Shown here: piece by piece, positions 4,708 through 61,528 of the stretch | Layout of the letters: each line of letters opens with the position of its first letter | Position numbering within the stretch: the first letter of the stretch is position 1 | Assembly: GCA_050950165.1 (NCBI GenBank) | Contig: JBMNHC010000001.1 | Span: 389,738 to 453,737, forward strand | Direction: 5' to 3' | Source of the DNA: Candidatus Dojkabacteria bacterium | GTDB taxonomy: Bacteria > Patescibacteriota > Dojkabacteria > SC72 | Length of the DNA stretch: 64,000 nucleotides | Translations under genes and position numbers: made by a program | The notes under the pieces: model-generated | Told to the model about the DNA's origin: nothing | Seen by the model: the letters and a program-made list of their open reading frames with translations, nothing else | Database searches by the model: none

Positions 4708-6065
4708 CACTCTCTCTTCTTCTCTTTATATATTTTATACCCTAGTAGTATTGCTAGTAGAACAATCAGTGCAATTAACCAGTAAACATAGTTTGGTGTA
4801 GTTACTTGTTCCAACTTTATATTAATCTCCATCTCTTCTTCTCCATCATTAATTAAGTTAATCTCTCTTTCTGATCTATACCCGTTGTATGAAATAACCA
4901 TTGTATGTAAACCAGTATCTAGATTTTCAAAATATACCTCTCCATTTTCATCAGTAATACCTGTTCTAATATCAGAGTGTATTTCAATAGTTGCACCTTT
5001 AATAGGTCTGTGTTGTTTGTCATATACCTTTACTCTTAAGTTCTTAGATTGAGTAGAAGAAGTAGGCTCTTTAACTGTATCTGAAGTATCGTCGGAAGTT
5101 TCTTCTTCCATCTGTTCTATTACAGAGGCGAAATATTTAGTAAATGGATTCCTTGGTTTTCGTATTACTGGTTGTGGGACTGGTGGTGTTATGACGGAGG
5201 GGGGAAGTACAAAGTACATTATACTATTATCCGTAAAGGTACTAGCCTCATTTAAATTACCAGCCATATCTGCAATTCTTCCAGCAGGTAAAATGAGTCT
5301 TACTGTTTCTCCAGATAGCATACCAGTTATAAATACTGTATATGTAGTATTATTAACCTTTACTATTTGAGATACCCTAGCTGTACTACTACCTAAAATA
5401 TCTAGCTCTCCCTTGTAGAAAGAAGTTACATTTACTGGTTCGGAGAAAACAGCTGTAAATTTTATTGGTTCTGTATGTGCAGGATCTGTTTGACCTTTTG
5501 CTTGATTAATTGTCACAGTTGGTGGAGTGGTATCGTATGTAACAGAGTTGTCGGTAAAGGTACATATGAGGTTGTCATTTCCAGCAAGGTCTGTAACTGA
5601 CCCTGCAGGTAGTCTTGCAACTACAGTATCTCCATCTGTTAAGTTATTTACTTCAATTTCATACCTTTTATCACCAATGTTTGTAATACTTTCTACTTGG
5701 GCAGTACTACTTCCTAAGAGTAGTACTTTCCCTTTTGTAAACGTAGCTTCATTAATAGTCTCGGAGAAAATAACTAAGAATTTTATAGAATCTTCATTAG
5801 TAGGATCACTTTGTGTTGGTGATTGATTAACAGAAACAGTTGGAGGAGCTGTGTCTTTCTTTAATGTTGCTTCTGCATTCCCTTCGTTTCCTACAGAATC
5901 TGTTTGTTTTACTGCTACAGGAATATCTCCATCAGGGTAGGTGGAAAGATCTAGAGGTAGGGTCCATCTATTTTCATTACATGTTGCTAAGTATGGTTGT
6001 GTAATCATGATGACAATTGGGTCTTTATCACCAGACGTGCATCCACCTGATAGTGTGTAGCTCAT
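4707..6065 (-). CDS. C-terminal fragment of the second giant DUF285 surface protein: Ig-like repeats, CarboxypepD_reg-like domain and a C-terminal TM anchor. Same frame as ORF 6264..9302.
   Basis: Supplied ORF. Repeated motifs TPPTVxxNQ...TxPIxFxxxFSE are Ig-like. The stretch LRVKVYDKQHRPIKGATIEIHSDIRTG...YNGYRSEREINL is a carboxypeptidase-regulatory-like fold. The hydrophobic tail YVYWLIALIVLLAILLGYKIYKEKKRE is a TM anchor. It is homologous to the corresponding region of gene 1..4707. Confidence 0.75.
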   Translation of the reverse strand: MSYTLSGGCTSGDKDPIVIMITQPYLATCNENRWTLPLDLSTYPDGDIPVAVKQTDSVGNEGNAEATLKKDTAPPTVSVNQSPTQSDPTNEDSIKFLVIFSETINEATFTKGKVLLLGSSTAQVESITNIGDKRYEIEVNNLTDGDTVVARLPAGSVTDLAGNDNLICTFTDNSVTYDTTPPTVTINQAKGQTDPAHTEPIKFTAVFSEPVNVTSFYKGELDILGSSTARVSQIVKVNNTTYTVFITGMLSGETVRLILPAGRIADMAGNLNEASTFTDNSIMYFVLPPSVITPPVPQPVIRKPRNPFTKYFASVIEQMEEETSDDTSDTVKEPTSSTQSKNLRVKVYDKQHRPIKGATIEIHSDIRTGITDENGEVYFENLDTGLHTMVISYNGYRSEREINLINDGEEEMEINIKLEQVTTPNYVYWLIALIVLLAILLGYKIYKEKKRE

Positions 6066-6263: not shown

Positions 6264-9200
6264 TTAGTCATTCAATACATCAACAGTTGTATCTGAGTGT
6301 ATTGTGATATCGTCTGCAAAAAGATCAACCCCATCAGTAACTGTAATTGTGACATCAGTGATATCGCTGTTACTTGATTTGGTAGGTGCAGAGATAACTA
6401 TTTTTGGAGCCTCTGTGTCATGGAAATATTTTTGTAAATTCATCCCTTCATATATCTGTTCAGAGGCATCTTTTTCCTTAGCATGAACTTCAAGCATACC
6501 AGTCTCTTGAATACCGTGTATCTGGCATTCTACAGAAGTAATGTAAGGGAAAACTGGAGTCTCATCTATGTTGTCATCTTTATCTTTACAGTTGCGAAGC
6601 TGTGCTCCGGAAGCGGCTGCACCTCGGAGGTCAATATCAGTAATGATGTTGCCTGGAGTGGATGTAGTAATTTTTACAGTTGTATTATTGATAGGGTTTC
6701 TACTAATTATGGTAGGAGCAGTTATTTCAATTGTTGGTGGGAAATAGATTCTTCTGGATGTGTAGTTATCGGTATTGTCATACGCCTTAATTTCTATTGA
6801 ACGAGGAACCTGATGAGGATCTAAGTCGATCTCATCGTAGGAAAGTGTTCCTGGACGATCTTCAATTGAAATGATTGTGGCTTCCTCTGATACACCCTCT
6901 CCGTCATTATCTTTAAAGAAAATGATTTCATATCTCTGTATTCCTGTAGGGTCTTCAGCTTTAAAGGAAACACTTGGATTATCTATACTGTATGGTGTAG
7001 CAGTATTAACATTGGCTACAGTAAAGGTTGGACCAAATGTATCAATGATATATCCAGGCTCTTCAGCAGTAGTAGTGTAACCTGCTTCATCAGTAGCATA
7101 AAGGACTAAGCTACCAGAGGTGGTAATGGTGACCTTACATCTTATAGTTAAATGGTTTGTAGGGTCAGGTTCATCACATCTATATGGGAAATCTGGTGAT
7201 GATGTGTTTCTTACTCCCCAACACTGGATGCTATTAGGCTGAATGGCAGCAACACTTGATGTATGTAATCCTACTGATTTAATTGAGAATCTATCACTTA
7301 CTTCAAACTCTGTATCCGTTATATTCCCCTTGTTTTTCTTAATCCCTGGGTAAATTGTAATAACTGGTCCTACATCATCAATATCGTTGACGGTAATAAC
7401 GAAGACTGCTTCCGAGTACTGTTTAACTACATCAGTGACTCGTACTCTAATGGTATATTTGTTTCCATCTTCTGGATCAGCTGAACCTTGTGGGTCTTCA
7501 AAGTCAGGTGGTTGTGAGAATGCTAATAGTCCAGTAGATGAGTTAAGAGCAAATTTAAGATTGTCTTCACTTCCTTGCCCAGGAACAAGGGTGTAGATTA
7601 GAGATGAAGTCTCTTCGTCTTCTGCAGTGATAGTGCCTACCTCTGTTGTATTTTCATCAATCTCTGTGTAGTCCAAATCTATATTAAATGGAGGACAGTT
7701 TTGACCAGCATCATTGATAGTCCAAGTGTAAGTAGTACTTAACTTGTTCCTAGCTGTTCCTGCATTACAGTAGTAAACACCATCTGCACCGAATGTTAGA
7801 CCCAATTTGACATTTTGTTCACTCCAACTGTTCAATAGCCTGTCATAGTTATCTGATACTAGTCCAGAGTCGCTGAGAAAGAGATCAAAATTTGTAACAC
7901 CTCTAACATTCCAAGTTGATATGTCTTGATTGAATGCCTTTGCGTTGTTGAACAAAGAGCTCATATTACTAACCTTTGAGGTATCCCAATTTCCAATAGG
8001 TTGGTTAAATGAGGTTGCACCTTTAAACATATCTGACATAGAGGTAACTCCTGATGTCACCCAATTGTTAAGAGGTTGATTAAAAGCTACAGCTCCTTCA
8101 AATAGTTTGCTCATAGTATATACCTGAGATGTATTCCAACTGTTAAGTGGTTTGTTGAATGAAGAGGCACCTCTAAACATACTTGCCATATCTCTTAGTC
8201 TGTTAGTCTCCCAAGTACTAATATCTTGGTTAAACGAAGTAGCTAAAGAAAACATAGCTGTCATGTAAATAACCTTTGATACATCCCAATCACCAATTGG
8301 TTGATTGAAATTAGTAGCCCCAGCAAACATACCTGACATATTCGTTACATTTCCTGTTTTCCATTTCTTAATATCTTGGTTAAAAGCTGTTGCACTATAG
8401 AACATGTATCTCATGTTGTTGACATTTGAAGTATTCCATTCCCCTATGGGTTGATTAAAAGCATTGGTACTACCAAACATATATGACATATCTTCAACAT
8501 TTTTAGTATCCCAATTCTCAATATTTTGATTAAATGCTCTAGCTACATAGAACATACAATTCATATTTGTAACATTTCCAGTATTCCAACCCCCAATATT
8601 TCGATTAAATGATTGAGCGTTCCTAAACATTCTTGACATATCAGTTACATTGTCAGTATCCCAGCCACTAATGTCTGCATTGAATTTACCACTATTCTCA
8701 AACATACTTTTCATATTAGTCACATTGATGGTATCCCAAGAGTTCATAGAATTGTTTCCAGTAAAGTTTTGGAGACCACCGAAAGCACCAGACATATCTG
8801 TTACTCTTGACAGATCAGGTGCATCAGAAGCAGTTAACTGCATATTACCCATACCCCAGAAAGATGATGCAAAACTTGACCATGGAATGGTACCCCACTG
8901 TTTAATCTCTAATAGTTTTGCTCTTTCATTTGCAGATAAGCCTGTAGATTGGAAAGATATTGGATAGATAGTCTGTATACAAATTCTATAAGTACCGGGT
9001 GTTTGAAAGTCATGAACGACTTTGTCATAATAAATCACTTCATCAATAGAGCCATTACATTCCCAGTCAACTTCATAGCTACCTGTTGCTCCTGTTAACT
9101 GGAAGTTTAAGGTAACTGTTGAATCAGTTGGATCAGTTATATTAGTTTGCCATTCGGTTACGAATAGATTAGGGGCATAGGCATAGGTTTTAAAAGGATG

Positions 9201-10922: not shown

Positions 10923-12074
10923 TTACTCAAGCTTTTTATTACTACTCAATTCTAAAAATTCTTTGTAGTTATCAATATTAACAAGCTTGTATGTAGCATT
11001 AGGGTATTCTAACCAACTCTTAGGAGCCTTCCTATCTTTATCCCACTTAAATTCATATCCATCTAAATTATCTGCATACTTCTCTATATAGTCCACCTCT
11101 GCTCTGTCATATGTTCTCCAAAAGAATCTAGATACATATCTTCTAGTATATTCATTTAATTTCATCCTTTCTATAATTAGGAAGTTTTCCCACAATGCTC
11201 CTCTGTCATTTCTTTTACTTAATGGATTGAAATTGTTAATTAATGCATTTCTAATACCTAAGTCATAGAAATATATCTTGTTTTGTTTAGAAAGTACTTT
11301 TCTTTCATTAGTGTAGTATGGAGGTAATCGGAAGATAACATAGTTTTTTTCTAAAAGATCTATATATCTCTCTATTGTCTTGTAATCTAAACCTACAAGG
11401 TTACTAAGCTCTGTTAATGAAACTTCTGAACCTATCTGTAATGCTAATGCTGAGAGTAATTTATCTAAATATGAAGAATCTTTTACCTTCTCTAATGCTA
11501 ATATGTCTTTGTATAGGTAGCTTCTACTTATTTCTCTTAACAATCTCTCTTTCTCAGAAACACTACTTGTATATACTGCTGGGTACATACCGTATACCAA
11601 GAGTAGTTCTAATTCTTTATCTATAGCTAACGGGTGTTTTTCAGAGTATATTTCTCCAACAGAAAGAGGGTAGAGTTCATAAACATATTTCCTACCTGTT
11701 AATGGTTCTGATGTATTAGAAAGAAGATTAAGACTAGATGAACCAGTTGCAATGATCTGTTTTTCTTCTCCATAGTTATCTACAAGTAGTTTAAGTACAT
11801 TCCCTATCTCTTTAACCTTTTGAGCTTCATCTATAAATATGATTTTTTTGTCTGCTATGAAGTTGTTTAAGTATTCAAAATCTCTCTTATCTAAATTTTC
11901 TTTATCTTTTGGGTTATCGGCATTTAGAAACAAGACATTGTCATAGTCTTTTAATATATGGGTTGCTAGTGTTGTTTTACCAATTTGTCTAGGTCCAGAG
12001 ATGATAATAACCTTTCCTTTGAAGAAATCTCTCTTTATATTCTCTTCTATTGTTCTTTTTAGTCTGTATTTCAT
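10923..12074 (-). CDS. AAA+ superfamily ATPase with C-terminal DUF4143-like domain
   Basis: The Walker A motif is ISGPRQIGKTTL, with a Walker B-like IIFIDEAQ. The C-terminal region has the conserved architecture of the uncharacterised AAA_14/DUF4143 ATPases common in archaea and CPR. Confidence 0.7.
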   Translation of the reverse strand: MKYRLKRTIEENIKRDFFKGKVIIISGPRQIGKTTLATHILKDYDNVLFLNADNPKDKENLDKRDFEYLNNFIADKKIIFIDEAQKVKEIGNVLKLLVDNYGEEKQIIATGSSSLNLLSNTSEPLTGRKYVYELYPLSVGEIYSEKHPLAIDKELELLLVYGMYPAVYTSSVSEKERLLREISRSYLYKDILALEKVKDSSYLDKLLSALALQIGSEVSLTELSNLVGLDYKTIERYIDLLEKNYVIFRLPPYYTNERKVLSKQNKIYFYDLGIRNALINNFNPLSKRNDRGALWENFLIIERMKLNEYTRRYVSRFFWRTYDRAEVDYIEKYADNLDGYEFKWDKDRKAPKSWLEYPNATYKLVNIDNYKEFLELSSNKKLE

Positions 12075-12085
12075 TCCTGTTATTA

Positions 12086-12199
12086 GGCTTAATTTAAGGA
12101 ATTGGCTCCTTATTGTAGGCCCAATTTAAGGAATTGTCAAGTATTTTATGCCTAATTTAAGGAATCAACTACAAACATTATGCCTAATTTACGGAATTG
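12086..12199. repeat. Four direct iteron-like repeats (~19 bp, consensus GCYYAATTTAAGGAATTG) spaced ~32 bp apart, in the promoter region of the DUF4143 ATPase gene
   Basis: The copies are ggcttaatttaaggaattg (12086), ggcccaatttaaggaattg (12118), tgcctaatttaaggaatca (12149) and tgcctaatttacggaattg (12181). The period of about three helical turns matches phased protein-binding sites. Confidence 0.6.
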
Positions 12200-12248
12200 T
12201 TAGTGTGTAGAAAAGGATAGGTATATTTCTAAAGTTAAAAACAACTCT

Positions 12249-13022
12249 TTAACCAATATTCTTGAAGCTGACATCTAAATATTTAACTATATAATCAAAA
12301 AAAGAAGCCAAATTCTCCCTCTCTTTTCTAGGCACAAAAGGAGCTAAATCTTTTACAAAGTTCTTCTTGGAGAACAACTTTATCCTTTCTTCTAAAGTAT
12401 TTGAATCTATTTTCTTAATATCATAGTACTTAAGCTTCTTGGTAACCAAGTCATCATTAAACTTTGCTCCAAGCTCTAGTAATATCCATAAATCATATAG
12501 ATCTCTATGCTTTACCCTTGTCATTACAGCCCTTATCTTCTCTGCAAATATCTCATCTATACTTAAGGTATTTACAAAACTTTGGAAGATAACAGGATAC
12601 TCGGTTTTTAGAATACTTTGCTTTGGTTCTAAAACTTGTTCTCTAGTAGAGAAATCTAGTTTGATATATACCTTGCTCTTTAGAAAAGGAACCTCTGCTG
12701 TCAAAAGATATGTATATCCTATTATCGATTTCCTCTCCTTTATCTTAAAAGTATATATGTTTTCTAAATATTGAAAGAATGAGAGTATCTTCTCTTCGAA
12801 TTCTTCCTCTGGCATATTTACAGTGAAATCTAAATCCTCTGAAAATCTATGTCCTCCCCATATTAATCTGATTGCAGTGCCTCCCTTAAAAAAGATATTT
12901 TTAGAGAAATTTTGTTCATACAATTCTTTTAGAAAGAGTATCTGTACAAACTCTCTTACTACGACAGAGTTAGATATTTGAAATTTTTTTGATAGTTGTT
13001 TTACTTGTTGTTCTATTATCAT
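12249..13022 (-). CDS. AbiEii/AbiGii-family nucleotidyltransferase (type IV toxin-antitoxin / abortive infection toxin)
   Basis: The N-terminal motif FFKGGTAIRLIWGGHRFSEDLDF matches the nucleotidyltransferase motif of AbiEii/DUF1814 proteins. Size is 257 aa. The gene overlaps the upstream AbiEi-like gene by 4 nt (ATGA). Confidence 0.75.
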   Translation of the reverse strand: MIIEQQVKQLSKKFQISNSVVVREFVQILFLKELYEQNFSKNIFFKGGTAIRLIWGGHRFSEDLDFTVNMPEEEFEEKILSFFQYLENIYTFKIKERKSIIGYTYLLTAEVPFLKSKVYIKLDFSTREQVLEPKQSILKTEYPVIFQSFVNTLSIDEIFAEKIRAVMTRVKHRDLYDLWILLELGAKFNDDLVTKKLKYYDIKKIDSNTLEERIKLFSKKNFVKDLAPFVPRKERENLASFFDYIVKYLDVSFKNIG

Positions 13023-13609
13023 AGATATTGAGATATTAAAAGTTTAATTGATTTCCTAAGCCTCTTTGGTAGGAGGTATATATATTTTTCTACTTCCCTT
13101 TTTTTAATATTTGTATAGTCCATTTCATTTAGATACTCTGCATTTTTTTTCTTTAGGGCTATCATGTAGAGTTGATCAAAGAGAGCTTTTTCTGGATATG
13201 CCATGAGACAGTTACCTAGTTTGTAATATCCAGTATATATTTGCTTACTTATCTTCGTATATGTGTATGTTTTGCCCAATATTTCTTTACTTTTGCTTTT
13301 CTTTGTCGTAGCTGAAATAATTTCAAATGGAAACTGACTTAAAATTCCATGATAGTTAAGAGCAGTTTCAAAGGAGATGTATGATGGAGAGTAGAGGAAT
13401 TGAGATATTTCAAAGTCTGTGATATTTGAATCTGTTAGTATGTACTTACCTTTTTCTAAAGGAGTTATTACTTTTGTATCAATTAGTTTCTTTATTCTGT
13501 TTTCTAATGTTCTTTGAGTATTGATTCCTAAGATTTGTGATATATCTTTAGTAGTAAAGAGCTTTTTATCACTTTTAAGAAACAAATTTACAATGTTTAT
13601 CAGTTCCAT
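13019..13609 (-). CDS. AbiEi-family antitoxin/transcriptional regulator (winged HTH N-terminus)
   Basis: A 196-aa protein with an N-terminal HTH-like segment (TTKDISQILGINTQRTLENRIKKL) sits immediately upstream of, and is translationally coupled to, the AbiEii-like gene. Its own promoter carries a palindromic operator. Confidence 0.65.
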   Translation of the reverse strand: MELINIVNLFLKSDKKLFTTKDISQILGINTQRTLENRIKKLIDTKVITPLEKGKYILTDSNITDFEISQFLYSPSYISFETALNYHGILSQFPFEIISATTKKSKSKEILGKTYTYTKISKQIYTGYYKLGNCLMAYPEKALFDQLYMIALKKKNAEYLNEMDYTNIKKREVEKYIYLLPKRLRKSIKLLISQYL

Positions 13610-17560: not shown

Positions 17561-18907
17561 ATGAGCTATATTTGTTCAGTATGTGCAACAGAATATCTTA
17601 AATGGTCAGGTAAATGTAATACATGTGGGCAGTGGGGTACCTTAGAAAAGATTGAAGAGAGTACTCAAGTAGTAGGTACATCTGTAAGTAAAACTAAAAA
17701 AGCAGACTATAAGGCTATTACCAAATATAGAGAGAAGGCCCCTAGTAAAAGAGGCGCGTCTAATCGTATTAGTTCAGGCTATTTAGAATTTGATAGAGTC
17801 TTGGGCGGTGGCTTTGTAGAGGGTAGTGTAGTTTTACTTAGTGGTGAGCCTGGAGTGGGCAAATCTACACTCTTGTTGCAGATAGCATTAAATCTTTCTT
17901 CTGATAAAAAGATTCTCTATGTATGTGGTGAAGAGTCTCCAACTCAACTTCTTTCTAGATTAGATAGGCTCTCTGGTAAGGGTGGTAAAGTAGAAAATAT
18001 CTTTGTTACTAGCGATGTGGTAGTAGAGAGCATATTTGCTCTTGTTGAGAAAGAGAGATTTGATCTTTTAATTGTGGACTCAATACAAAGTATGAGCTCG
18101 GAAACATCTAGAGGATATCCTGGGAGTATTAGCCAGGTTAGGGCATCAGGAGCAATATTGACTAGATTAGCAAAGTCAACGGGAATACCAACAATACTTG
18201 TAGGGCAGATAAATAAGGGGGGAGATATTGCAGGTCCTAAGATATTAGAACATATTGTAGACTGTGTACTCTACATTGAAGGTGGAGAGTTTAATCAGTA
18301 CAGGTTGTTAAGGGGTATGAAGAATAGGTTCGGCTCTACTAATGAGATAGGGGTTTTTGAGATGAGCTCTAGTGGATTGATGGAGGTAGGGAATCCTTCT
18401 TTGCTTTTCTTAGATAGCAAGTCCAATGTATCAGGTAGTGCAATAGGGGCTGTAATACAAGGTTCTAGAGTTGTATTTGTAGAGGTACAAGCACTAGTTG
18501 TAGAAAGGTCTGGAGAAGCAGGTCCGTTAAGAAGAGTCGCAAATGGTATTAAGAAGCCTCGTTTAGATATGCTTACTGCTGTTCTTTCTAGAAGAGGAGG
18601 GGTATTTTTAGGTGATAAGGATGTTTTTGTAAATGTAGTAGGAGGTATTAATATTTCTGATCCTGCAATAGATTTAGCAATATGTGCGGCTATTAAATCA
18701 GCAGTAAAAGATAATGTTTTAGATAGAGATTCTATATATTTCGGAGAGGTTGGTCTTACAGGAGAGATTCGTGGTACATGGGGATTGCAATCGGTTCTTT
18801 CAGAAGCATCAAGGGTAGGGTACAAGAGGATATATATAGGAGATACTCCTTTAAAAAGTGTACCAAAGATAAATGTGTCTGTAGTAAAGGGTATTAAGAA
18901 GTTATAA
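17561..18907 (+). CDS. radA: DNA repair protein RadA/Sms
   Basis: There is an N-terminal C4 zinc finger (CSVCATEY...CNTCGQWG), a RecA-like Walker A (GEPGVGKST), a KNRFG motif and a Lon-like C-terminal domain. The clpC-radA order matches Firmicutes-type synteny. Confidence 0.9.
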   Translation: MSYICSVCATEYLKWSGKCNTCGQWGTLEKIEESTQVVGTSVSKTKKADYKAITKYREKAPSKRGASNRISSGYLEFDRVLGGGFVEGSVVLLSGEPGVGKSTLLLQIALNLSSDKKILYVCGEESPTQLLSRLDRLSGKGGKVENIFVTSDVVVESIFALVEKERFDLLIVDSIQSMSSETSRGYPGSISQVRASGAILTRLAKSTGIPTILVGQINKGGDIAGPKILEHIVDCVLYIEGGEFNQYRLLRGMKNRFGSTNEIGVFEMSSSGLMEVGNPSLLFLDSKSNVSGSAIGAVIQGSRVVFVEVQALVVERSGEAGPLRRVANGIKKPRLDMLTAVLSRRGGVFLGDKDVFVNVVGGINISDPAIDLAICAAIKSAVKDNVLDRDSIYFGEVGLTGEIRGTWGLQSVLSEASRVGYKRIYIGDTPLKSVPKINVSVVKGIKKL

Positions 18908-19063
18908 TTTTTTTTGACAAATACCATCCACAAAACGCGTAAAGTTTTAAATATTTTTTACCAATCGTAACCTGTATTTTCCCAAAAGGAGAAAGATTGT
19001 TGTAAGAATGGGAGAATGTCTTGGTTGTCGAAAAGAGCTCTCACGTGGATATCTTTTATAGGC

Positions 19064-19093
19064 TTGACATACGATTGTCATAGGGGTTATAAT
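19064..19093 (+). promoter_or_regulatory. Strong sigma70-type promoter (TTGACA - 18 nt - TATAAT)
   Basis: TTGACA at 19064-19069 and TATAAT at 19088-19093. Confidence 0.6.
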
Positions 19094-19099
19094 ATCTCG

Positions 19100-19358
19100 T
19101 TCTTTAATATCTTATGTGGATATCTTACCTTTCTCCCTTTGTCTGGGGTGCCACGAACACATCTGGACAAAAGGAAAAGGGTAGGATACTCTTAGTTTCT
19201 CTCTCCCTGGGTTTGGTCTTAAAATAGTTCTGAACCTAAGGAAAGGGAGATTGAGGGAAGCATAAGTATGCTCTTCGATATTAGCCTTCTTTTGATTAAA
19301 AAGAAGGATAACACCGGGGTCGGTTGGGGCAGTACCGATCCCTCTTTTTTTTCTTTTT
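19100..19358 (+). ncRNA. Candidate small transcript (sRNA or mRNA for a 37-aa peptide) between radA and rho, bracketed by the consensus promoter and a strong intrinsic terminator
   Basis: No ORF of 50 aa or more lies on the + strand. The only candidate is a 37-aa ORF at 19118-19231 (MWISYLSPFVWGATNTSGQKEKGRILLVSLSLGLVLK) with no SD. The supplied minus-strand ORF 19112..19366 runs antisense through the terminator. Confidence 0.3.
19316..19358 (+). terminator. Rho-independent terminator (9-bp GC-rich stem plus U-run)
   Basis: GGGGTCGGT-tggggcagt-ACCGATCCC, followed by tcttttttttcttttt. Confidence 0.7.
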
Positions 19359-19367
19359 AATCTCATA

Positions 19368-19396
19368 TTGACTTCTTAAAATTCTTTGAATATACT
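19368..19396 (+). promoter_or_regulatory. rho promoter (TTGACT - 17 nt - TATACT)
   Basis: TTGACT at 19368-19373 and TATACT at 19391-19396, downstream of the terminator and upstream of the rho start. Confidence 0.5.
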
Positions 19397-19487
19397 GAAT
19401 AGTCAAATGGGTTAAATGCCCATCTATGTAATTTCCCAATTTATTCATATGGTAAACAAAACAAAGACTATAAAAGAGTACGAGAGT

Positions 19488-24988: not shown

Positions 24989-27900
24989 ATGTTAAAAACT
25001 TACTGCTCGAAAGTAGCAAAATTTGTATTCATTTTGTTGGTACTACCCTTCTTTTTTGCTACTTATAAAGTATATGCACAAACCTCTACAACTGTTAATT
25101 TCCAAGGAAAAATTGTTAGAAATGATACAGGTCATGAAGGATTAAACGTTACAACTGGAAACCCTGCCTGTGTCTTAGCTGGTCAAGACACATGTGATTT
25201 CCAAGTTAAATATTACTCAGCACAGAGTGCGGGAACACTCTATCTAACTGAAACATTTCTAAACAAGGAGATAGGAGATTACGGTGGAGTGTTTAATCTC
25301 TCTTTAGGCTCTGGAACAATGACTCCAGGCATTTACTCTACATTAGACCAAGTCATTAACAACTCTAATTCGGTATACATAGAGATCCTTTTCTCTCCTG
25401 CAGGTAATGAAACATATACAGAAACATTCTCAAGAATGCCACTTCAAGCAGCACCATATGCCATTAGATCTAAATATGCAGGGGTAGCACAAGGAGCATT
25501 TAAGTTTGAAAATGCAGCAAACGCTACTGGATATACAGGAAGTGATGGTATGGTTTACTACGATACTACAGATGGTGTATTGAAACTCTACTCAGGCGGA
25601 ACATGGGTCCCTCTTGCAACAGGCTCAAGTGGAAGTAATATCTGGCAAGGGGCAAGTATCTCATCATTTAGTCACTACCCATCTCAATTCTTAGAGACAA
25701 CAGGTATAGCTACATTAGCTAACTTCGGTGTAGATACAACAGAAAACAGAGCATGGGTACACGGTGCATCATCAAGAACAGGATTTTCAGTTTACTCTAA
25801 CTACAACGGTAGTACAGACTGGCCACTTGTGACATTTAAAGCAGATGCAAGTGGTTTTACTAGCTCAATATTACAATTAATCCAAGATGGAACTGGAAGT
25901 ATCTTAGAAGGATATCAAGGAAGTAACAAAGTATTCGATGTAGACAACAGAGGAGATATGCACCTTTCATCAGACGGTACACTCTATCTAGAACCTTTTA
26001 CATCTCTACCTAGCTCATCAGATCTCTATCCTGCCTCAGGAGAAGGTTGTCTTTACTCTGTGGGTGGAAACATATATTGGGATGGTGCATGTAATGGTAG
26101 TTCTCCAAAGATGCTTAATGCAACTGCTACATCTCTTTGGACAGATGCTGGAACATTTACCTACCTTACCTCTACTTCAGACAACTTAGTTCTTGGTGGT
26201 AGTACAGTAGCTACTGCAAGATTCTTCTTCGATATGACAGCAGCGAGTGGTAGATATTTTAAAGTGGATAATTATAATAACTCGGAGACTCTGTTTACAA
26301 TAGATAGTAGCGGAAATATTGGTATTGGAACTGCAAGTCCTACACACAAATTAGATATTGCAGGTACAAACTCTTCAATAGCTAATGCAACAGGAGATAT
26401 TACGATTACTCCTGCACAGAATTTAATAATTAGTAGTGGAAAAGTTGGGATAGGGACATCTACACCAAGTTCACTTCTTTCGATAGGTTCTTCAAGTCAA
26501 TTCCAGGTAGATGGTAGTGGAGATATTGTAAAGATAAAGGGATTAACTTACTCATGGCCTTCAGCACACACAACAAACGGAGTATTGGTAAATAATGGGA
26601 GTGGTACTCTCTCATGGTCAACAGTATCAGGACTGGGAGGAGTTACTGGTACAGGTAGTAGTGGACAGATAACGTTTTGGAATGGGACTTCAAGTATTAC
26701 AGGAGATAACGGTTTCTGGTGGGATAATACAAACAAGAGACTAGGTATTGGAACGAGTACTCCTCAAGCATCAATAGATATTGCAGGAGCAACATCAGAG
26801 ATATCTAATACGTATGGAAACATTTCAATACTACCATATCAATCACTAGTAGTTACAGGAGGTAGTACAGCTCCTACAGCTATGTGGGTATACAAGACAG
26901 GTAGTGCAACATCAGGAGATATTTTTGGACTTAGAATAGAGACAAACCAGACTGTAGCAGGAGCTCTAACAGTATTTGGAAACAGGATTGTAAATAGGGC
27001 CACTCATACTAGTGGTACATTGGCAGGATTACAAGCTAATAGTACACAGATACAGCTAGAGGGTAATGGTGGTACTACAAACTATGTAGAGGGTCTAACT
27101 TCTAATATAACTGTATCTACAGGAGCAATAGCTTCTAATGTACACCTATTAAGAATATTTTCACCAACTAACTCAGGAACAATTAATCACCTAAAGGGTA
27201 TTCTCATTAACAACATGAATGCAGGTTCTTCTTCTAACTACTCCATATATTCAGAGGGAGGTACTATGTATCATGCGGGTAATGTGGGGATAGGGACTAG
27301 TAGTCCTAGTGGACTTTTGGATGTATCTAATTCTTTTTATACAGGGACAGGAATAATTCTTGTCAGACCTCAGGATAGTAGTAATGAAGGTGGAGAAATA
27401 CGACTACTTGGAGCTGGTTCAAATGCCTCAGTTTTTATAGATAATTATGCAGGTATATTGAGAATTCTCCCATCAAGTGGAACTGTGGCAGTGGAAGTTG
27501 GTGGAACTGTTAATGCTCATAGTGTATTTTGGGGAGGAAGTGGGAGTAGAACAGAAGCAAGAGATGATATAGGGTTAAGAGGTGATGCAGGTGCACGAAG
27601 TGGCTTTTATGAAGCACATAATCCTTCTCCTGCAGCAAACTGGTATCCTGGAGCAACTGGCTGGCAACATTTCATTGATGTAAGACATAGTAATATTACT
27701 AATAACTATGCATTACAGATAGCAGGTTCTTTCTTTAATCAAGAATTATACTTCAGAAAAACAGCAAATAGTCCTACAACAGGATGGAACAAGTTTGTAT
27801 ATGCGGATAGTAATGGTAATGTTAGTATTGCCAATGCTGCCTCTGGTGCGACTCTTACTGTTGGTAGAGCAGCTGGACAGCCAAATATTAAATCATCTAC

Positions 27901-30355
27901 AGACTGGTTTATGATAGATTCAACATCTAATCCTGTATCTATTAATCACTATGTAGCTCAAAATGTTCTGTTAGCATATGGGGGAGGAAGGGTGGGTATT
28001 GGTATGAATGGTCCTAGTCAGAAGTTAGATGTAGCAGGAAGTATTCGTTCTACTGGTCATTTATTTTTAAATAGGGGAGACCCTACGATTTTCTTACAGG
28101 ACACAGACCATAGAAGTGCTATGGTTTATGCTAATAATAATACTTTTTATATCCTCCGAGGTAGTGGTGTAAATTCTACCACTTGGACTATGTACAATGG
28201 GCAGTGGCCACTTGAAATTAATCTAGAGAATAATGATGCTCTTTTTGGAGGTAAGATTACATCTATAGGTGATGTAGATGTATATAAATATATAACAATT
28301 AATAAACAAGCGAGTAATGCTTGGTTTTCTTTTAGACAATACTTTTCTTCAGGTACATATATAGAGGTTGATACTCCTGGAGGATATCGTGGTATCTCTA
28401 CTTTTGCTTCAAGTCAAAAGTATAAGAAAAATATAGAGGATTTAGAAATTGATAGTAATCTTATATATAGCTTACGACCTGTTAGTTTTAATTGGAAAAC
28501 AGATACAGATGATACACCAAAGACATTTGGTTTAATCGCTGAAGAAGTAGAACAACATATACCAGAGTTAGTTAGGTATAGAGAGAATGGAGAGATTCTT
28601 TCAGTTATATATGAGTTAATAAGCGTATTGAATATGAAAGAGTTGCAGAAACATGAGAGATATATAAAGGAGATTCAAGGGACTTTGGCATTTATTGGTA
28701 CTCCAGTTGGAAATACAAATATATTAGAACGTATAGAAAATCTAGAAAAAATATATAGTGGTAAAGAAGAAAATTATCAAGTAGAAGGTGTTGTAGTTAG
28801 AGGTTCTCTTGTTAGTATTAATACTACTACGCCATGGTCTGTTATTGCTGCTTACGAAGGAAAGGATTCTATTGTTGGTGTAGTTAGTACTAATCCAAGT
28901 GCAGTAATGGATGCAGATGGTGGGTTCCAGATAGGATATGCTACAAAACCAATTTATCAGGACGAGAAAGCTCCCATTGCTCTAGTAGGAACAGCTCCAA
29001 CTTTAGTTACCTCTTTAAATGGTCAGATTGAAATAGGAGACAGTATTGGTGTCTCTAGTTTAGCTGGATTTGGTGCGAAGATGACTCTAGCTGGGTATAC
29101 AGTAGGAAAAGCTTTAGAAAGATTAGATAGTAACAACTGTTCTTCAGTAAGTAATATCAATGCTATTAATTGGCCTGAAGATGACAGTAGGAATTCTCTA
29201 AAACCTTGTTATCTACTCCCTGACGGTACTGTTGTGGGTAAAATCATGGTTGCTATTCAACCATCTTGGTTCGATCCTAAAACCTTCGTGTCTATAGGCG
29301 AAGTCTCTTCCCCAGGCTGGTATAGAATATCTCAAAGTAATGAAAATAGTAGTGCTAATGTAAAAATATCTAACAGTACAGTAGGATCATTACAAAATAT
29401 TAATATGCTAATAGATAAGAATAACATTAATACACTCTCTAACTTTACATCAGGAAACTCTAACATTACTAAATCTAGACTAACAACTGTAGGAAATACT
29501 ACATATTTAGAAATATATATTGAAAATGTAAACAACAATATATTAACTGTTAAAGTAGAAGGCCAAGGATGGAGTGGAACAAACATATCTAAAGTAGAAG
29601 AAACATTTACAGTAAAAGAATACGCATTAGAAGGTGTGCTCCTAGGAGTAAGTGATACATTCTCTGTATCTAAAGAAGGAAGCCTACTAACCTCAATGGT
29701 AAATTCGGACATTGGTAATAGCGGAAGCAGATGGAACGATATATATACTAAGGGAACAATCAGACTAGGAAGTGGAAATAGCGAAGGAGGAATTAGATAC
29801 AATATTGAAAAACAGAGATTAGAATTCTCTAATGATGGAATCAATTGGATAGCTATGGGAGACCTAACATCTAACCTAGTAATATCTCCGGAGTATAGTG
29901 GAGCAATATTGTATGCTGACGGAAGTGATAATAGTGGTAGAATGACATCAGACGCATTAGAAGAGAATGGATCATTTACAAACTACTACGAGTGGAAATC
30001 AGATAGAGACACCCTACAAGACTATGACATATTAGTACGAATTGTATTACCAGATGACTTTGTTAGCTGGAATGAAAACGCAATATCTCTTAACTTCATG
30101 ACAGAAAACTCTGCATCAGTATCTAATAACAAAGTAGAAATGACACTAATAGATAGTAGTGGAACAGATGTAGAAGTAAAAGATGGAATAAGTAAATTAC
30201 CAGGAGTATGGGAGAGAATGACAATAAAGAGTGTAGACATTGATAAATGTCAAAGTGCAGGACAACTCTGTACCCTCAAACTCTCACTGTTTTCTAAAGA
30301 TAGCTACTACTCAAGAGTAGGAGATATTACTCTAAACTATAACAGAGGACTGTAG
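24989..30355 (+). CDS. Giant (1788 aa) secreted tail-fibre-like surface protein with an internal peptidase S74 (intramolecular chaperone) domain
   Basis: A signal peptide is followed by repeated V/IGIGTxxPxxxLDV/IAG motifs typical of phage tail-fibre-like proteins. At about nt 28411-28700 the stretch SSQKYKKNIEDLEIDSNLIYSLRPVSFNWKTD...FGLIAEEVEQHIPELV...ISVLNMKELQKHE matches the S74 chaperone-of-endosialidase consensus, with a Ser...Lys dyad at i/i+5. About 550 aa follow this domain. Confidence 0.7.
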   Translation: MLKTYCSKVAKFVFILLVLPFFFATYKVYAQTSTTVNFQGKIVRNDTGHEGLNVTTGNPACVLAGQDTCDFQVKYYSAQSAGTLYLTETFLNKEIGDYGGVFNLSLGSGTMTPGIYSTLDQVINNSNSVYIEILFSPAGNETYTETFSRMPLQAAPYAIRSKYAGVAQGAFKFENAANATGYTGSDGMVYYDTTDGVLKLYSGGTWVPLATGSSGSNIWQGASISSFSHYPSQFLETTGIATLANFGVDTTENRAWVHGASSRTGFSVYSNYNGSTDWPLVTFKADASGFTSSILQLIQDGTGSILEGYQGSNKVFDVDNRGDMHLSSDGTLYLEPFTSLPSSSDLYPASGEGCLYSVGGNIYWDGACNGSSPKMLNATATSLWTDAGTFTYLTSTSDNLVLGGSTVATARFFFDMTAASGRYFKVDNYNNSETLFTIDSSGNIGIGTASPTHKLDIAGTNSSIANATGDITITPAQNLIISSGKVGIGTSTPSSLLSIGSSSQFQVDGSGDIVKIKGLTYSWPSAHTTNGVLVNNGSGTLSWSTVSGLGGVTGTGSSGQITFWNGTSSITGDNGFWWDNTNKRLGIGTSTPQASIDIAGATSEISNTYGNISILPYQSLVVTGGSTAPTAMWVYKTGSATSGDIFGLRIETNQTVAGALTVFGNRIVNRATHTSGTLAGLQANSTQIQLEGNGGTTNYVEGLTSNITVSTGAIASNVHLLRIFSPTNSGTINHLKGILINNMNAGSSSNYSIYSEGGTMYHAGNVGIGTSSPSGLLDVSNSFYTGTGIILVRPQDSSNEGGEIRLLGAGSNASVFIDNYAGILRILPSSGTVAVEVGGTVNAHSVFWGGSGSRTEARDDIGLRGDAGARSGFYEAHNPSPAANWYPGATGWQHFIDVRHSNITNNYALQIAGSFFNQELYFRKTANSPTTGWNKFVYADSNGNVSIANAASGATLTVGRAAGQPNIKSSTDWFMIDSTSNPVSINHYVAQNVLLAYGGGRVGIGMNGPSQKLDVAGSIRSTGHLFLNRGDPTIFLQDTDHRSAMVYANNNTFYILRGSGVNSTTWTMYNGQWPLEINLENNDALFGGKITSIGDVDVYKYITINKQASNAWFSFRQYFSSGTYIEVDTPGGYRGISTFASSQKYKKNIEDLEIDSNLIYSLRPVSFNWKTDTDDTPKTFGLIAEEVEQHIPELVRYRENGEILSVIYELISVLNMKELQKHERYIKEIQGTLAFIGTPVGNTNILERIENLEKIYSGKEENYQVEGVVVRGSLVSINTTTPWSVIAAYEGKDSIVGVVSTNPSAVMDADGGFQIGYATKPIYQDEKAPIALVGTAPTLVTSLNGQIEIGDSIGVSSLAGFGAKMTLAGYTVGKALERLDSNNCSSVSNINAINWPEDDSRNSLKPCYLLPDGTVVGKIMVAIQPSWFDPKTFVSIGEVSSPGWYRISQSNENSSANVKISNSTVGSLQNINMLIDKNNINTLSNFTSGNSNITKSRLTTVGNTTYLEIYIENVNNNILTVKVEGQGWSGTNISKVEETFTVKEYALEGVLLGVSDTFSVSKEGSLLTSMVNSDIGNSGSRWNDIYTKGTIRLGSGNSEGGIRYNIEKQRLEFSNDGINWIAMGDLTSNLVISPEYSGAILYADGSDNSGRMTSDALEENGSFTNYYEWKSDRDTLQDYDILVRIVLPDDFVSWNENAISLNFMTENSASVSNNKVEMTLIDSSGTDVEVKDGISKLPGVWERMTIKSVDIDKCQSAGQLCTLKLSLFSKDSYYSRVGDITLNYNRGL

Positions 30356-30358
30356 TAA

Positions 30359-33148
30359 ATGAAAAAGAAAAAATTTAAGAAAGTACTCATATGTAGCGGG
30401 TACCTTTTTTTAGGTATTTTCTTTTTTGTACTAATCTTTATCTTAATAAACAAAACCCTCAGAAAAGAAAACGAAGATATCATAGGAGTAGCTGATAGTA
30501 ATACATATTTTAGAAATATTAACCCTAAATTTAGTATAGACTTTGTAGATGGAGAATATATTAGATTTGAAAGTGTAGGCTCATATAAAAACCCTTTTGA
30601 AGAGAAAAAAATATCTCTCTTTCAAAAAATAAAACAATATCTCCAATTTAAGAACAAAAGAGAAGGAATTGAGATAAAACTAGAATCAATATCATATGAC
30701 AAAGAAATAGAAGATATTACAGGAAAAGAATTCTTAGAATCAGAATTAAACAGAAGTATAGAACTAATAGATGGTAAAAAAATAATATCTAAAAACATAT
30801 ACAGAGGAATAGATATAGAGTATGAAGTAGTAAAAGGAAAAGGACTTAAAGAAGAAATAGTCCTAAGAGATATCCCAGAGTACAAAACAGTTTGTGAAAA
30901 GAAAGAATGTATATTACCTGCTAACAGATATATCTTTAAAATTACACTAGATGAAGGATTACAACTAAAAAGAAGTATTACTAATCTAAAAGAATACCCA
31001 GCAGGAACATATTATGTAGTAGATAAGAAAGGAAATTACTTCGTACACCTCTTACCAGAATTTGCAGTAGATGCGTTAGGAAATAAAACGAGTAACTTAG
31101 ATATTGTCATCGAACCTTTAGAGAAAAACAATGAATACCTCTATAAATTAACACTAGATGCACAATGGCTACTTAGTAATGAAAGGGCCTTCCCTGTAAG
31201 AATAGACCCCAGTATTGTGCATGACAGCCTGTTAGCTCTAGATTTAGGAACATATGACAGAGTAGCATCGGACCAAACATCAACAGTAAGATTAGATAGT
31301 GCACTTAGCGGAGAATATACCTCTTCAATTTTGGATCTTGGAAGTAATGCATCTCTTGATGATATTAGATGGAGTACTTTTGCTCAAGCAACAGGAGATA
31401 GATATATTCCCTTTTCTCAATTAAGAATCATCTTAGAAGAGAATCTCTCTAATATGGTTGTTGGAAAAGACAAACAAACAAAAACATTTAATATCCCATT
31501 AGAACAAAGCTCTTTCTTTACAATAGAGAGTTGGATATATCAAAGATATGTTGGTGAGTACAACTTAGAAAACATCTTTAGATCTTCTTTGGGTAATATA
31601 GTAGTTAGTGATGGTGTGTACGGTTTCCAAAATACAAATGGAAACATCTTTAAATTTAATATCCCTGTTAAATATAACGCTTGGGTACATCTTGCTGTAA
31701 TATTTGACTTAGAAGATAATCAACTCTCTCTATACATAGATGGTAAGGAAGAAAAAATATCTGTAGACTTTGCAAACAAAACAACCCTAACTCAAGTAAT
31801 CTTAGGAGGTACTAACAGTATCTATGGACATATTGATCTACTAAGAGCATACAGTAGACTACTAACAAGCTACGAAATAATATCTAACTCTCAATATACT
31901 GACCTTTTCCTTACATACAGAGAGAGTGAAAACGGAAAAGAGTGGAGAGATTGGAAGTACAGTTTAATACCAATACTCTCACCAGAGCTAAGAGAGAAAG
32001 AAATATATATCAAGACCGATAACAGTGTGATTAATGATGATACCGTCTTAACTTTTCTCTCTCAATCGGACAAAGCAGAGGAAGTATATATAAGTGGAAG
32101 CCCTATAGAGGCGGGAGTAGAAGATACTAATACTACTCTTTTAGACAAAACAAACAACACCTACACTATGGAAAATATCAAATATCTCGATCTATGGTTT
32201 AGCCCACAACAAAATGAGAACCTCTGCTTACTTAATATATCAAATTCCATTTTAGAAACTAATACAGACGGCAAAATACTACTTAAAACACCAAACAAAA
32301 CCCTCTTCTCCGAAGACTCATATATATTAGGTAAACAAAATCATATAGCAATAAAAGTAGAAAATACTAGATTAATATTCTTTCTCAATGGAAACAGAAC
32401 CAGTATAGAGATACCAAACTACCAATTACCCCCTGAAGGAAGTTATAGCATCTCTCAAAACTGTAGTAGTGGCTTAGGAGAAGCTACTGTAGAAAAAGTT
32501 AGAATATCCTCTGAAGAAAATATAGATGTGTATGAAGTAGCTAATATTGAAAACAGAAAATATATAACTACACCTACATTTAAAGCAACACTATCCAATC
32601 CTCTCTTTGCTGAAAACAAGAATATGTACCTCAAAGAAGAAACTAACTCATCCAACTATGTCCAAAACTTAAATGCAGAAGATATACTTGTGATAGAAGA
32701 AGGAGAGTATAAATTAGAAGGAAAAGTTGTACAAATAGATAAAGCAACAGGATTAGTAGAAGTAGAACAGTGGAGTGGGCAGTTCCCATCAACAGGCTTT
32801 ACTAATCAAGCGAGGATATATAAATGGCAAAGAGAATATATACCAGTAAAAAGATATATAGATAGTGATAGTAGTATCTTTTTGAATAGTAGAGATAATT
32901 TAGTTCTAAAAGACATACAGCTAATATCTTTTCCTAAAGAAGATAACTCTTTACTACCTATGAATAATCTTGAGACAGCATATCTACAATACAAATTTGT
33001 ATTCTTTTCAAAACTCCTAGGCTTAACACCGTATCTTTCTAGTGTTAATATTAACTATACAAACAGTAGGCCTGCGATGGAGCAGATAATGAGACATGGT
33101 AAATGGTTTAGTGATAAAGGAGAAGAGCCCTTCTGGTGGGCTAAATAA
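30359..33148 (+). CDS. Large membrane-anchored protein with a LamG/concanavalin-A-like lectin domain; hypothetical
   Basis: N-terminal TM (VLICSGYLFLGIFFFVLIFIL). A LamG-like segment lies around aa 380-500 (WVHLAVIFDLEDNQLSLYIDGKEE...DLLRAYSRLLTSYEI). The gene starts 3 nt after the stop of the giant upstream gene. Confidence 0.5.
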   Translation: MKKKKFKKVLICSGYLFLGIFFFVLIFILINKTLRKENEDIIGVADSNTYFRNINPKFSIDFVDGEYIRFESVGSYKNPFEEKKISLFQKIKQYLQFKNKREGIEIKLESISYDKEIEDITGKEFLESELNRSIELIDGKKIISKNIYRGIDIEYEVVKGKGLKEEIVLRDIPEYKTVCEKKECILPANRYIFKITLDEGLQLKRSITNLKEYPAGTYYVVDKKGNYFVHLLPEFAVDALGNKTSNLDIVIEPLEKNNEYLYKLTLDAQWLLSNERAFPVRIDPSIVHDSLLALDLGTYDRVASDQTSTVRLDSALSGEYTSSILDLGSNASLDDIRWSTFAQATGDRYIPFSQLRIILEENLSNMVVGKDKQTKTFNIPLEQSSFFTIESWIYQRYVGEYNLENIFRSSLGNIVVSDGVYGFQNTNGNIFKFNIPVKYNAWVHLAVIFDLEDNQLSLYIDGKEEKISVDFANKTTLTQVILGGTNSIYGHIDLLRAYSRLLTSYEIISNSQYTDLFLTYRESENGKEWRDWKYSLIPILSPELREKEIYIKTDNSVINDDTVLTFLSQSDKAEEVYISGSPIEAGVEDTNTTLLDKTNNTYTMENIKYLDLWFSPQQNENLCLLNISNSILETNTDGKILLKTPNKTLFSEDSYILGKQNHIAIKVENTRLIFFLNGNRTSIEIPNYQLPPEGSYSISQNCSSGLGEATVEKVRISSEENIDVYEVANIENRKYITTPTFKATLSNPLFAENKNMYLKEETNSSNYVQNLNAEDILVIEEGEYKLEGKVVQIDKATGLVEVEQWSGQFPSTGFTNQARIYKWQREYIPVKRYIDSDSSIFLNSRDNLVLKDIQLISFPKEDNSLLPMNNLETAYLQYKFVFFSKLLGLTPYLSSVNINYTNSRPAMEQIMRHGKWFSDKGEEPFWWAK

Positions 33149-59828: not shown

Positions 59829-60236
59829 TTACTCTAGCTCTACTGTTGCACCAGCTTCTTCAAATTTTGCTTTGAATTCTTCTGCTTCCTCTTTCTTTAC
59901 AGCTTCTTTAACTGTTTGAGGTGCACTATCTACAAGATCTTTAGCCTCTTTAAGACCTAACTCTGTAATCTCTCTTACAACTTTGATTACACCGATCTTG
60001 TTTGCTCCTGCATCCTTAAGAACAATGTTGAAGGAAGTTTTCTCTTCCTCTGCAGGTGCTGCCTCTGCTGGAGCTGCTGCTGCTACTGCAACAGGTGCTG
60101 CTGCACTTACTCCAAACTTATCCTCCATTACTTTAACAAGGTCTGCTAGTTCTAAAACGGTCATCTTCTCAACCATTTCTACAACTTTCTGAGCATTTGC
60201 TGTTAATGTAGGAAGTGTTTTTGCTTCGTCTGCCAT
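59829..60236 (-). CDS. rplL: 50S ribosomal protein L7/L12
   Basis: An Ala-rich hinge ([21 protein letters not shown]) and a conserved C-terminal domain. Confidence 0.9.
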
Positions 60237-60274
60237 TTTTGTAAGTTAAATAATTTAAATTAAAATATATCTAT

Positions 60275-61481: not shown

Positions 61482-61528
61482 CTCTTGTTTTACAAACTTA
61501 CTGGTTGATAGGCAATAATGAGATGATG

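Follow-up and report, generated by a model that had tools for sequence, protein, structure and literature searches.

A candidate boxA-led structured RNA gene between radA and rho in Dojkabacteria, with copies in phage-like contigs

We analyzed a 64-kb stretch of Candidatus Dojkabacteria DNA (WS6, Patescibacteria; 35% GC; hereafter the window), focusing on the 540-nt spacer between radA and rho. This spacer very probably contains a separate gene, running from about position 19099 to 19350–19358, for a structured noncoding RNA (ncRNA) of ~255 nt that would represent a new family absent from Rfam 15. An earlier sequence-only reading had described the unit as an orphan promoter-to-terminator segment that fits either an independent small RNA or a tiny hydrophobic peptide. 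The first of these is supported by a conserved promoter (P1) and terminator, a separate promoter for rho (P2), covarying helices and occurrence of the unit away from rho. While the unit itself proved real, that reading had overlooked four of its features: a boxA at the 5′ end, a repeated hairpin module, a terminal hairpin (H5) that is nearly invariant even in its loop, and copies in phages.

Transcription signals and gene neighborhood

All genes around the spacer lie on the + strand, in the order rpsA, clpC, radA (17561–18907), spacer, rho (ATG at 19449, end at 20714), LysM/M23 peptidase, tRNAs and leuS. Relatives were collected through Rho as 80 loci, one per species, with Rho 80–96% identical to that of the window; the closest were all labeled as Dojkabacteria, WS6 or Patescibacteria metagenome-assembled genomes. 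Using nhmmer, the unit was found in 75 of these 80, always just upstream of rho, and the other five lacked enough upstream DNA.

The sequence-only reading had posited a near-consensus promoter, a strong intrinsic terminator with a 9-bp GC stem and U-run, and a downstream promoter belonging to rho alone, and all three were borne out. P1 matches the consensus in full and is the sole perfect TTGACA-N18-TATAAT in the window (chance expectation, 0.15), with a TTGACA/TATAAT- or TATACT-type promoter at the same position in 72 of the 76 loci compared (the window and 75 relatives). At the other end, the terminator spans 19316–19358, and 87% of 150 unique host copies have at least six U within 9 nt 3′ of H5. 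P2, a TTGACW-17-TATACT promoter between H5 and rho, is kept in 74 of the 76 loci; its −35 element lies 9–35 nt past H5, the distance in the window being 25 nt.

The 5′ untranslated region (UTR) of rho, ~47 nt long, is itself conserved and carries UAAUUUCCC 10–20 nt before the ATG, while most other genes in the window are leaderless. Its conservation suggests a separate element that controls rho translation or stability. Elsewhere in the window, Shine–Dalgarno (SD) sequences are rare and a TATAAT-like hexamer lies 5–15 nt before many start codons (for example, the leaderless-looking starts at 15073, 20739, 46323(−), 46508, 49680(−), 49753 and 62548(−)), so leaderless mRNAs appear common in the source genome. 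A candidate pairing of GGGAAR in the RNA with UUUCCC of the rho 5′ UTR was rejected: it amounts to 6 bp in the core clade but does not persist in the divergent clade, although UUUCCC is retained there.

Coding potential

The earlier reading saw no convincing open reading frame (ORF), citing one of 37 aa on the + strand (19114–19227; ATG start, no SD sequence) and one of 84 aa on the − strand (19112–19366). Both exist, and the listing was incomplete, as ORFs of 59 aa (19016–19195) and 30 aa (19268–19360) are also present. The judgment stands nonetheless: none of the four is conserved, and no conserved ORF was found in the unit across relatives on either strand. Over 72 relatives, the longest ORF has a median of 34 aa on the + strand and 24 aa on the − strand, which places the 84-aa antisense ORF of the window at the extreme of the distribution.

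The hydrophobic peptide is refuted, the 37-aa frame being broken in most relatives by a stop at codon 5. Its start also varies among ATG, GTG, TTG and CTG, and indels in the 72-sequence alignment are not multiples of three. That the unit encodes this peptide or any other small protein has in its favor the ATG-initiated frame in the window, but conservation acts at the nucleotide level, including changes that preserve G·U pairs, and we regard a coding role as a negligible prospect.

Structure and covariation

Folding of the predicted 264-nt transcript, from the −10 element to the end of the U-run, gave a minimum free energy (MFE) of −99.1 kcal/mol (z = −5.8 versus shuffles), and both the MFE and the consensus fold form a series of separate hairpins. 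The antisense strand of this unit is 20 kcal/mol less stable when folded, in keeping with a role for G·U pairs. We assessed covariation on a 72-sequence alignment (A1) with an RNAalifold structure of four helices and 500 shuffles. Standard pairs fill 96.7% of cells in the A1 helices, compared with 42–51% after partners are slid by 1–3 columns. Double changes occur at 21 pairs, and cells with double changes number 231 versus 72 ± 11 in shuffles. None of the 500 shuffles reached the observed covariation by any measure, so the helices do covary in related genomes, a check that the sequence-only reading had suggested for its small RNA.

H1 contains 24 pairs, 13 of them with double changes, and is 98.6% paired; H2 is variable or lost in certain clades of A1. 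Both are copies of a repeated module, CC[C]NNN-GYYUGG...CUGRRY-N′N′N′[N]GG, in which the C is always unpaired and a tandem U·G/G·U step closes the apical part. The NNN and N′N′N′ positions covary (TTT/AAA, AGA/TCT, AGG/CCT and TAG/CTA), and across 137 unique modules the 12-nt flanks pair at 10.98 of 12 positions versus 6.90 ± 0.13 with permuted partners. In the window the motif occurs exactly twice, both times within the RNA, with no occurrence in shuffles. Relatives carry 0, 1 or 2 modules per RNA, a variability expected of binding modules. Between the modules and the last two hairpins, the UCGAU of the junction precedes the penultimate hairpin in divergent lineages as well as in one phage copy (L201).

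The H5 consensus, GGGGUCGGUYGGGGCAGURCCGAUCCC, is invariant at 25 of 27 positions, loop included, over 72 species that were sampled through Rho and not through the RNA. The loci concerned have RadA identities down to 49–57% and LeuRS identities of 51–54%. An intrinsic terminator requires no such invariance, so H5 must, judging from the alignments, have a role beyond termination.

Several other structural candidates were rejected. A long-range pairing between the purine tract 5′ of H3 and the U/C tail, proposed by RNAalifold, was no stronger than chance (duplex, −7.60 versus −7.44 ± 0.15 for permuted partners), and a helix that would close the RNA by pairing the 5′ leader with the H4/H5 junction showed a weak excess (−4.0 versus −3.5) with inconsistent registers and is not claimed. 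The single-stranded UGUGGAUAU matches a DnaA box at eight of nine positions, but the window holds 10 such hits versus 21 expected, without a cluster; dnaA and dnaN are absent among the 38 large ORFs of the window that were scanned, GC skew tracks gene orientation, and the element was dropped as an oriC marker. Mimicry of the 23S GTPase-associated center by H1 was discarded, as this center is normal in Dojkabacteria 23S and the likeness amounts to a few bases. Likenesses of H5 to signal recognition particle (SRP) helix 8, the T-box sequence, 16S helix 45 and a tRNA-Ala-type acceptor stem, all noted by eye, had no model support.

Table 1 Predicted features of the radA–rho spacer (window coordinates)
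Feature	Position	Strand	Remarks
TATAGGC element	19057–19063	+	Adjoins 5′ side of −35; TAT(A/G)GGN before TTGACA recurs in relatives' promoters
Promoter P1 of the RNA gene, TTGACA-18-TATAAT	19064–19093	+	Consensus score 12/12
boxA-like GTTCTTTAATA	19099–19109	+	Transcript 5′ end; 0 mismatches to GYTCTTTAANA
Single-stranded UGUGGAUAU	19115–19123	+	>90% conserved columns in A1; unpaired in consensus fold
Hairpin H1, module 1	19121–19188	+	Core 19135–19174, CCCTTTGTCTGG...CTGGACAAAAGG, by motif scan
Hairpin H2, module 2	19189–19257	+	Core 19205–19241, CCCTGGGTTTGG...CTGAACCTAAGG; MFE fold, motif scan, module statistics
Small hairpin H3	19259–19272	+	A-U to G-C exchange at one pair, 31/72 sequences
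Junction UUCGAU	19274–19279	+	CGA nearly invariant in A1
Hairpin H4	19285–19307	+	Double changes at 5/5 tested pairs
Hairpin H5, GGGGUCGGUUGGGGCAGUACCGAUCCC	19316–19342	+	Stem and loop almost invariant
Intrinsic terminator stem GGGGTCGGT/ACCGATCCC	19316–19324 with 19334–19342	+	9 pairs including one G·U; 9-nt loop
Terminator U-run TCTTTTTTTTCTTTTT (UCU8CU5)	19343–19358	+	Directly 3′ of H5
rho promoter P2, TTGACT-17-TATACT	19368–19396	+	Outside the RNA; kept in 74/76 loci
rho 5′ UTR, hairpin GGGU..GCCC plus UAAUUUCCC	19403–19448	+	By-eye alignment of relatives' sequences

Conservation and distribution

A relaxed H5 pattern run against metagenome contigs gave at least 120 loci. Among the matches listed, 119 carry the RNA, and L156 is a high-GC chance match. 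Many of these loci are far more distant than the Rho-sampled set, with Rho 61–68% and RadA ~40% identical. The close Rho homologues of one distant locus (L183) are, where labeled, Dojkabacteria/WS6, so the family is established across Dojkabacteria but not outside them. Distant RNAs measure 130–190 nt. Their promoter is retained and has TATAGG elements ahead of both the −35 and the −10; also retained are, in most cases, boxA, a single module (commonly CCCAGAGUCUGGUUCGCGUACA...ACUGGACUCUYGG), the UCGAU junction, a variable hairpin and H5. L081 and L174 have a minimal form in which H5 comes straight after the promoter.

The clpC–radA–RNA–rho–M23–leuS neighborhood is syntenic throughout the Rho-sampled set, so adjacency to rho within that set says little on its own. 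Among the matches listed, host loci with enough flank have rho downstream in 162 of 173 cases and radA upstream in 148 of 157, leaving 11 and 9 exceptions, respectively. Three loci (L085, L123 and L149) have radA upstream and, instead of rho, a small downstream ORF that looks by eye like a ribbon–helix–helix (RHH) protein. Four (L087, L091, L101 and L106) have rho downstream without radA upstream, and in L126 the 3′ end of 16S rRNA takes the place of radA directly upstream of the RNA, with rho following. Neither gene adjoins the RNA in L088, L097, L110 and L172, the first three of which lie near a tmRNA gene. A plain rho leader with read-through, which the sequence-only reading had named as the alternative to its small RNA, or an attenuator of rho, does not fit these data, as the conserved P2 intervenes and the 11 loci lack rho downstream.

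The RNA is present once in the window and once per fetched locus, and no multiple copies (repeat or miniature inverted-repeat transposable element) were found in either. One locus, L048, has a partial second copy of the 5′ half of the RNA (5438–5561) with a run of N between the copies, most likely a scaffolding artifact and not a duplication. Two side observations concern the wider loci. Genes for rRNA lie a few kb upstream of clpC–radA–RNA–rho on the same strand in L082 and L112 (16S, tRNAs, 23S and 5S) and in L104 (3′ end of 23S plus 5S). In L101 and L106, Rho carries a low-complexity N-terminal extension of 150–200 residues before the usual N-terminal domain.

A boxA-like element at the 5′ end

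In the rRNA antitermination complex, boxA is where NusB and NusE bind. The element in the window matches the consensus derived by Baniulyte et al. (PMC5725501). With reference to Stringer et al. (2020), boxA has also been reported ahead of CRISPR arrays, which likewise yield long RNAs that are not translated. A boxA with at most two mismatches is present in 63 of the 105 unique leaders of all fetched loci, compared with ~6 in shuffles (~tenfold enrichment), and the boxA start is always 5–10 nt past the −10 element. The element is single-stranded in the consensus fold. A by-eye comparison with the boxA of the RNA revealed ATCTTTAATCTTTGA(T/A)AG-type elements upstream of 23S in six Dojkabacteria loci; in L082 and L112, the stretch bearing ATCTTTAATCTTTGA sits between the 16S/tRNA genes and 23S. 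The window also encodes nusG.

A second layout of a promoter with a boxA-like sequence just after it was observed on the − strand at 61340–61440, where TTGATA-N17-TATATAAT is followed by GCTCATTAACA (61401–61391) and GTTCATTAAAA (61368–61358). On the 3′ side of GTTCATTAAAA, AAGGAG-ATG opens a Cys-rich ORF of ~110 aa by eye, between rplA and rplJ; a Pfam search of an overlapping 131-aa ORF found no match. The surrounding cluster, nusG-rplK-rplA-(insert)-rplJ-rplL (59829–63564, −), has an rplA–rplJ gap of ~1 kb, in which Rfam detected no L10 leader.

Copies in phage-like contigs

Four phage-like contigs contain the RNA or its 3′ part. The most complete copy is found in L202, which encodes RecT, an exonuclease and a replication initiator; here the RNA has its promoter, module and H5 but no U-run and lies in a divergent early region upstream of the replication gene. 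In L201 (O-like initiator and RecE-like exonuclease), UUCGAU, a hairpin and H5 lie upstream of the exonuclease gene, and in L117 a module-like hairpin fused to H5 lies ~350 nt upstream of the gene for the small terminase subunit. L187, tentatively counted as phage-like, has H5 alone between convergent genes. The phage copies have four to six U in the 9 nt past H5. Phages carry copies of other host RNAs too.

A relaxed H5-loop pattern gave 85 hits in viral contigs, nearly all of them chance matches in high-GC coding DNA, and was set aside. At ~6950–7060 of viral contig L249 (35% GC), the inner part of H5 (GUCGGUUGGGGCAGUACCGAU) is nested in a longer hairpin, GAACUCAAG...CUUGAGUUC, which may be a further phage-borne relative of H5.

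The phage copies bear on whether H5 is conserved as a DNA site, either a phage attachment site or an operator of the adjacent promoters, with the surrounding RNA being secondary. H5 is an imperfect palindrome (9-N9-9) whose arms never covary, and phages with H5 alone (L187) or with the 3′ part of the RNA (L201) recall attP sites of RNA genes. However, the loop, which would be a mere spacer in DNA, is as invariant as the arms, and the arms differ by a G·U pair, which is mismatched in DNA as well as on the opposite strand. The varying distance between H5 and the rho −35 element leaves no helical phasing, no integrase was seen among the listed or scanned ORFs around phage H5 (L201 and L202 being read in part only), and L202 has the whole RNA with its promoter. 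We consider a DNA site very unlikely.

Proposed mechanism and alternatives

We propose that RNA polymerase (RNAP) starts at G19099 or nearby and that the nascent boxA-like GUUCUUUAAUA would recruit NusB and NusE (S10) and, by way of these, the Nus complex, in the manner of rRNA operons and CRISPR arrays. This complex would keep Rho from aborting the untranslated transcript and might perhaps aid RNA folding. Rho prefers RNA that is rich in C/U and poor in G, as are the strands transcribed first, UCUUACCUUUCUCCCUUUGUCU and UUUCUCUCUCCCU; protection would therefore be of use to an untranslated RNA located beside rho in an organism that has Rho. H5 and the U-run would then end the transcript, shielding the rho promoter 25 nt downstream. 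The released RNA would be stable and abundant; acting in trans, it would scaffold a conserved partner or serve as its decoy, binding it through the repeated module and through the H5 stem-loop, whose sequence is invariant. Candidate partners are a transcription-elongation or termination factor, or RNAP itself. Action in trans as an RNA–protein (RNP) complex is a tentative proposal that we hold at somewhat below even chances, and the full statement, combining an independent ncRNA gene, a boxA/Nus mechanism and action in trans, appears evenly balanced between right and wrong.

Several observations weigh against this proposal. Matches to boxA with one mismatch are not enriched over the whole window (29 versus 21.6 expected); the element being so short, the case for boxA depends on where it lies and on its conservation. 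In rho-unlinked loci (L088, L097 and L110) and in the H5-only form (L081 and L174), boxA is weak or lacking, and its loss away from rho fits a rho-linked role in cis at least as well. The phage copies, at operon heads and with weak U-runs, also favor a role in cis. Finally, the invariance of H5 alone cannot separate an RNA-level from a DNA-level role.

The strongest rival is a cis-acting read-through cassette (processive antitermination or attenuation) for rho or for phage operons. In such a cassette, P1 would constitutively make a short terminated RNA, and RNAP modified through boxA and Nus factors, maybe aided by H1 or H5, would pass H5 into rho and the genes beyond it, much as in the lambda PR′-6S RNA-tR′ unit, nut sites and HK022 put RNA; phages would place this cassette at their operon heads. 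In favor of this model are the boxA at the predicted transcript start, the position directly upstream of rho, which persists in deep lineages and also without radA (L087, L091, L101, L106 and L126), and the degeneration of boxA where rho is not downstream. In phage contigs the element, with its poor U-run, precedes a replication initiator (L202), a RecE-like exonuclease (L201) and the gene for a small terminase subunit (L117). Against this stand the separate conserved P2 between H5 and rho, the canonical strong terminators of host copies and the unrelated small ORF downstream in three lineages. In addition, Nus complexes of the rrn type are known chiefly for opposing Rho and not intrinsic terminators, and inspection by eye of the window and of relatives' sequences, without a systematic search, revealed no alternative pairing of the H5 arms. 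We rate this cassette as rather unlikely.

A second alternative is that the mature RNA, through an exposed boxA and C/U-rich strands, titrates NusB/S10 or Rho and thereby tunes antitermination or termination globally, its position beside rho reflecting this link. A consensus promoter suggests high copy number, boxA is unpaired in the predicted fold, the variable number of modules recalls CsrB and other sponge RNAs, and a phage would presumably gain by blunting host Rho. Yet the C/U-rich strands are base-paired in covariation-supported helices, and the most conserved part, H5, is G-rich and is not known to bind Nus factors or Rho. Such a decoy, a wholly inferential idea, strikes us as improbable.

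A broader possibility, which we consider doubtful, is a transcription-control RNA common to Dojkabacteria and their phages, in which boxA, the module and H5 act together on the elongation complex or on Rho. If true, the RNA would either render RNAP termination-resistant in cis, in a put- or nut-like manner, or sequester a termination or antitermination factor in trans, and the radA–rho spacer would be a control point for Rho levels in a lineage with almost no mRNA leaders.

To our knowledge, candidate-phyla bacteria, with their tiny genomes, have almost no described regulatory RNAs. The RNA predicted here is more conserved than neighboring essential proteins, has the best promoter in 64 kb, starts with a boxA signal otherwise reserved for rRNA and CRISPR arrays, and is copied by phages. 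These properties make it a likely core component of gene expression in Dojkabacteria. The family, missed by current annotation pipelines, would provide an entry point into termination in not-yet-culturable organisms, through the pairs of boxA with NusB/S10 and of H5 with its partner, although work on uncultured organisms limits the immediate impact.

Other features of the window

Three further regions of the window stand out. A region on the − strand (10923–13609), which just precedes a strand switch at ~13.65 kb, encodes an AbiEii-type nucleotidyltransferase toxin (12249–13022), an adjoining 196-aa ORF for which no family match was found and a DUF4143/AAA_14 ATPase, and looks like a small defense or toxin–antitoxin (TA) island. 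Two very large proteins (1,788 and 929 aa; 24989–33148) with endosialidase-chaperone (S74) and laminin-G/concanavalin-like domains are probably surface or adhesion proteins. A RuBisCO large-subunit homologue is encoded at 39923–41293; such homologues have been described for some candidate-phyla bacteria.

Comparison with known RNA families and systems

The sequence-only reading could not match the unit by eye to 6S, SRP, tmRNA or RNase P RNA and proposed a covariance-model search, and neither Rfam nor ARAGORN assigned it to a known family. At gathering thresholds, Rfam 15 identified only tRNAs in the window; at E ≤ 10, the spacer gave only chance-level hits (23–26 bits versus gathering scores of 56–93), and divergent homologues had no match at gathering thresholds or at E ≤ 1. 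ARAGORN found no tRNA or tmRNA in the RNA, and a bona fide tmRNA occurs elsewhere in relatives' loci. Sequence inspection and a regular-expression scan of all loci revealed in the RNA neither the SRP helix-8 signature (GNAR loop, AGCA side of the symmetric loop) nor the CR-I and CR-V signatures (P4 strands) of RNase P. A riboswitch is not indicated either, as P2 separates the RNA from rho and no Rfam aptamer matched. Literature searches on the RNA sequence and on small RNAs of Dojkabacteria and the candidate phyla radiation (CPR) found nothing relevant in the library that was searchable.

These results bear on whether the RNA is a very divergent housekeeping RNA, most plausibly 6S RNA. Its strong promoter, ~200–260-nt size, very high conservation within the lineage and single copy in the window and in each fetched locus are all reminiscent of 6S-like small RNAs, and 6S RNA is hard to detect across phyla, its covariance models often missing it. 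Nevertheless, no lineage gave an Rfam match even at the relaxed thresholds, the fold is a row of hairpins and not a single rod with a central bubble, tmRNA is separately present, and the SRP and RNase P motifs are absent. We therefore view this identity as extremely unlikely. Like raiA, OLE, ROOL and HEARO, the RNA is defined by conservation and covariation and is restricted to a lineage, but no Rfam 15 model matches it.

CsrB/RsmZ sponges share a short conserved hairpin module in variable copies (0–2 here). The module of the Dojkabacteria RNA differs in being a 12+12-nt helix with an unpaired C and tandem G·U pairs instead of GGA loops, and in occurring at most twice. With the lambda PR′-6S RNA-tR′ unit, nut sites and HK022 put, the RNA shares a strong constitutive promoter, a short structured RNA with boxA and hairpins, and a terminator ahead of genes, the phage copies being located at operon heads. 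In contrast to these cassettes, the downstream gene in the host is served by a promoter of its own, the sequences are not similar, and no N-like or Q-like factor is known.

Closest in its 5′ signal is the boxA of rRNA operons and CRISPR arrays; the shared points are an 11-nt GYUCUUUAANA-type element close to the 5′ end, a structured transcript that is not translated, and a bacterium that contains Rho. In Dojkabacteria, a related sequence is also found ahead of 23S. Here, however, the predicted boxA lies at or a few nt from +1, and the RNA would be only ~255 nt long with an intrinsic terminator. We know of no other orphan structured RNA class that begins with boxA. The candidate family is thus an unusual mix of a boxA-led small RNA, a wobble-closed module of variable copy number, a terminal hairpin conserved to the degree of rRNA, and phage copies.

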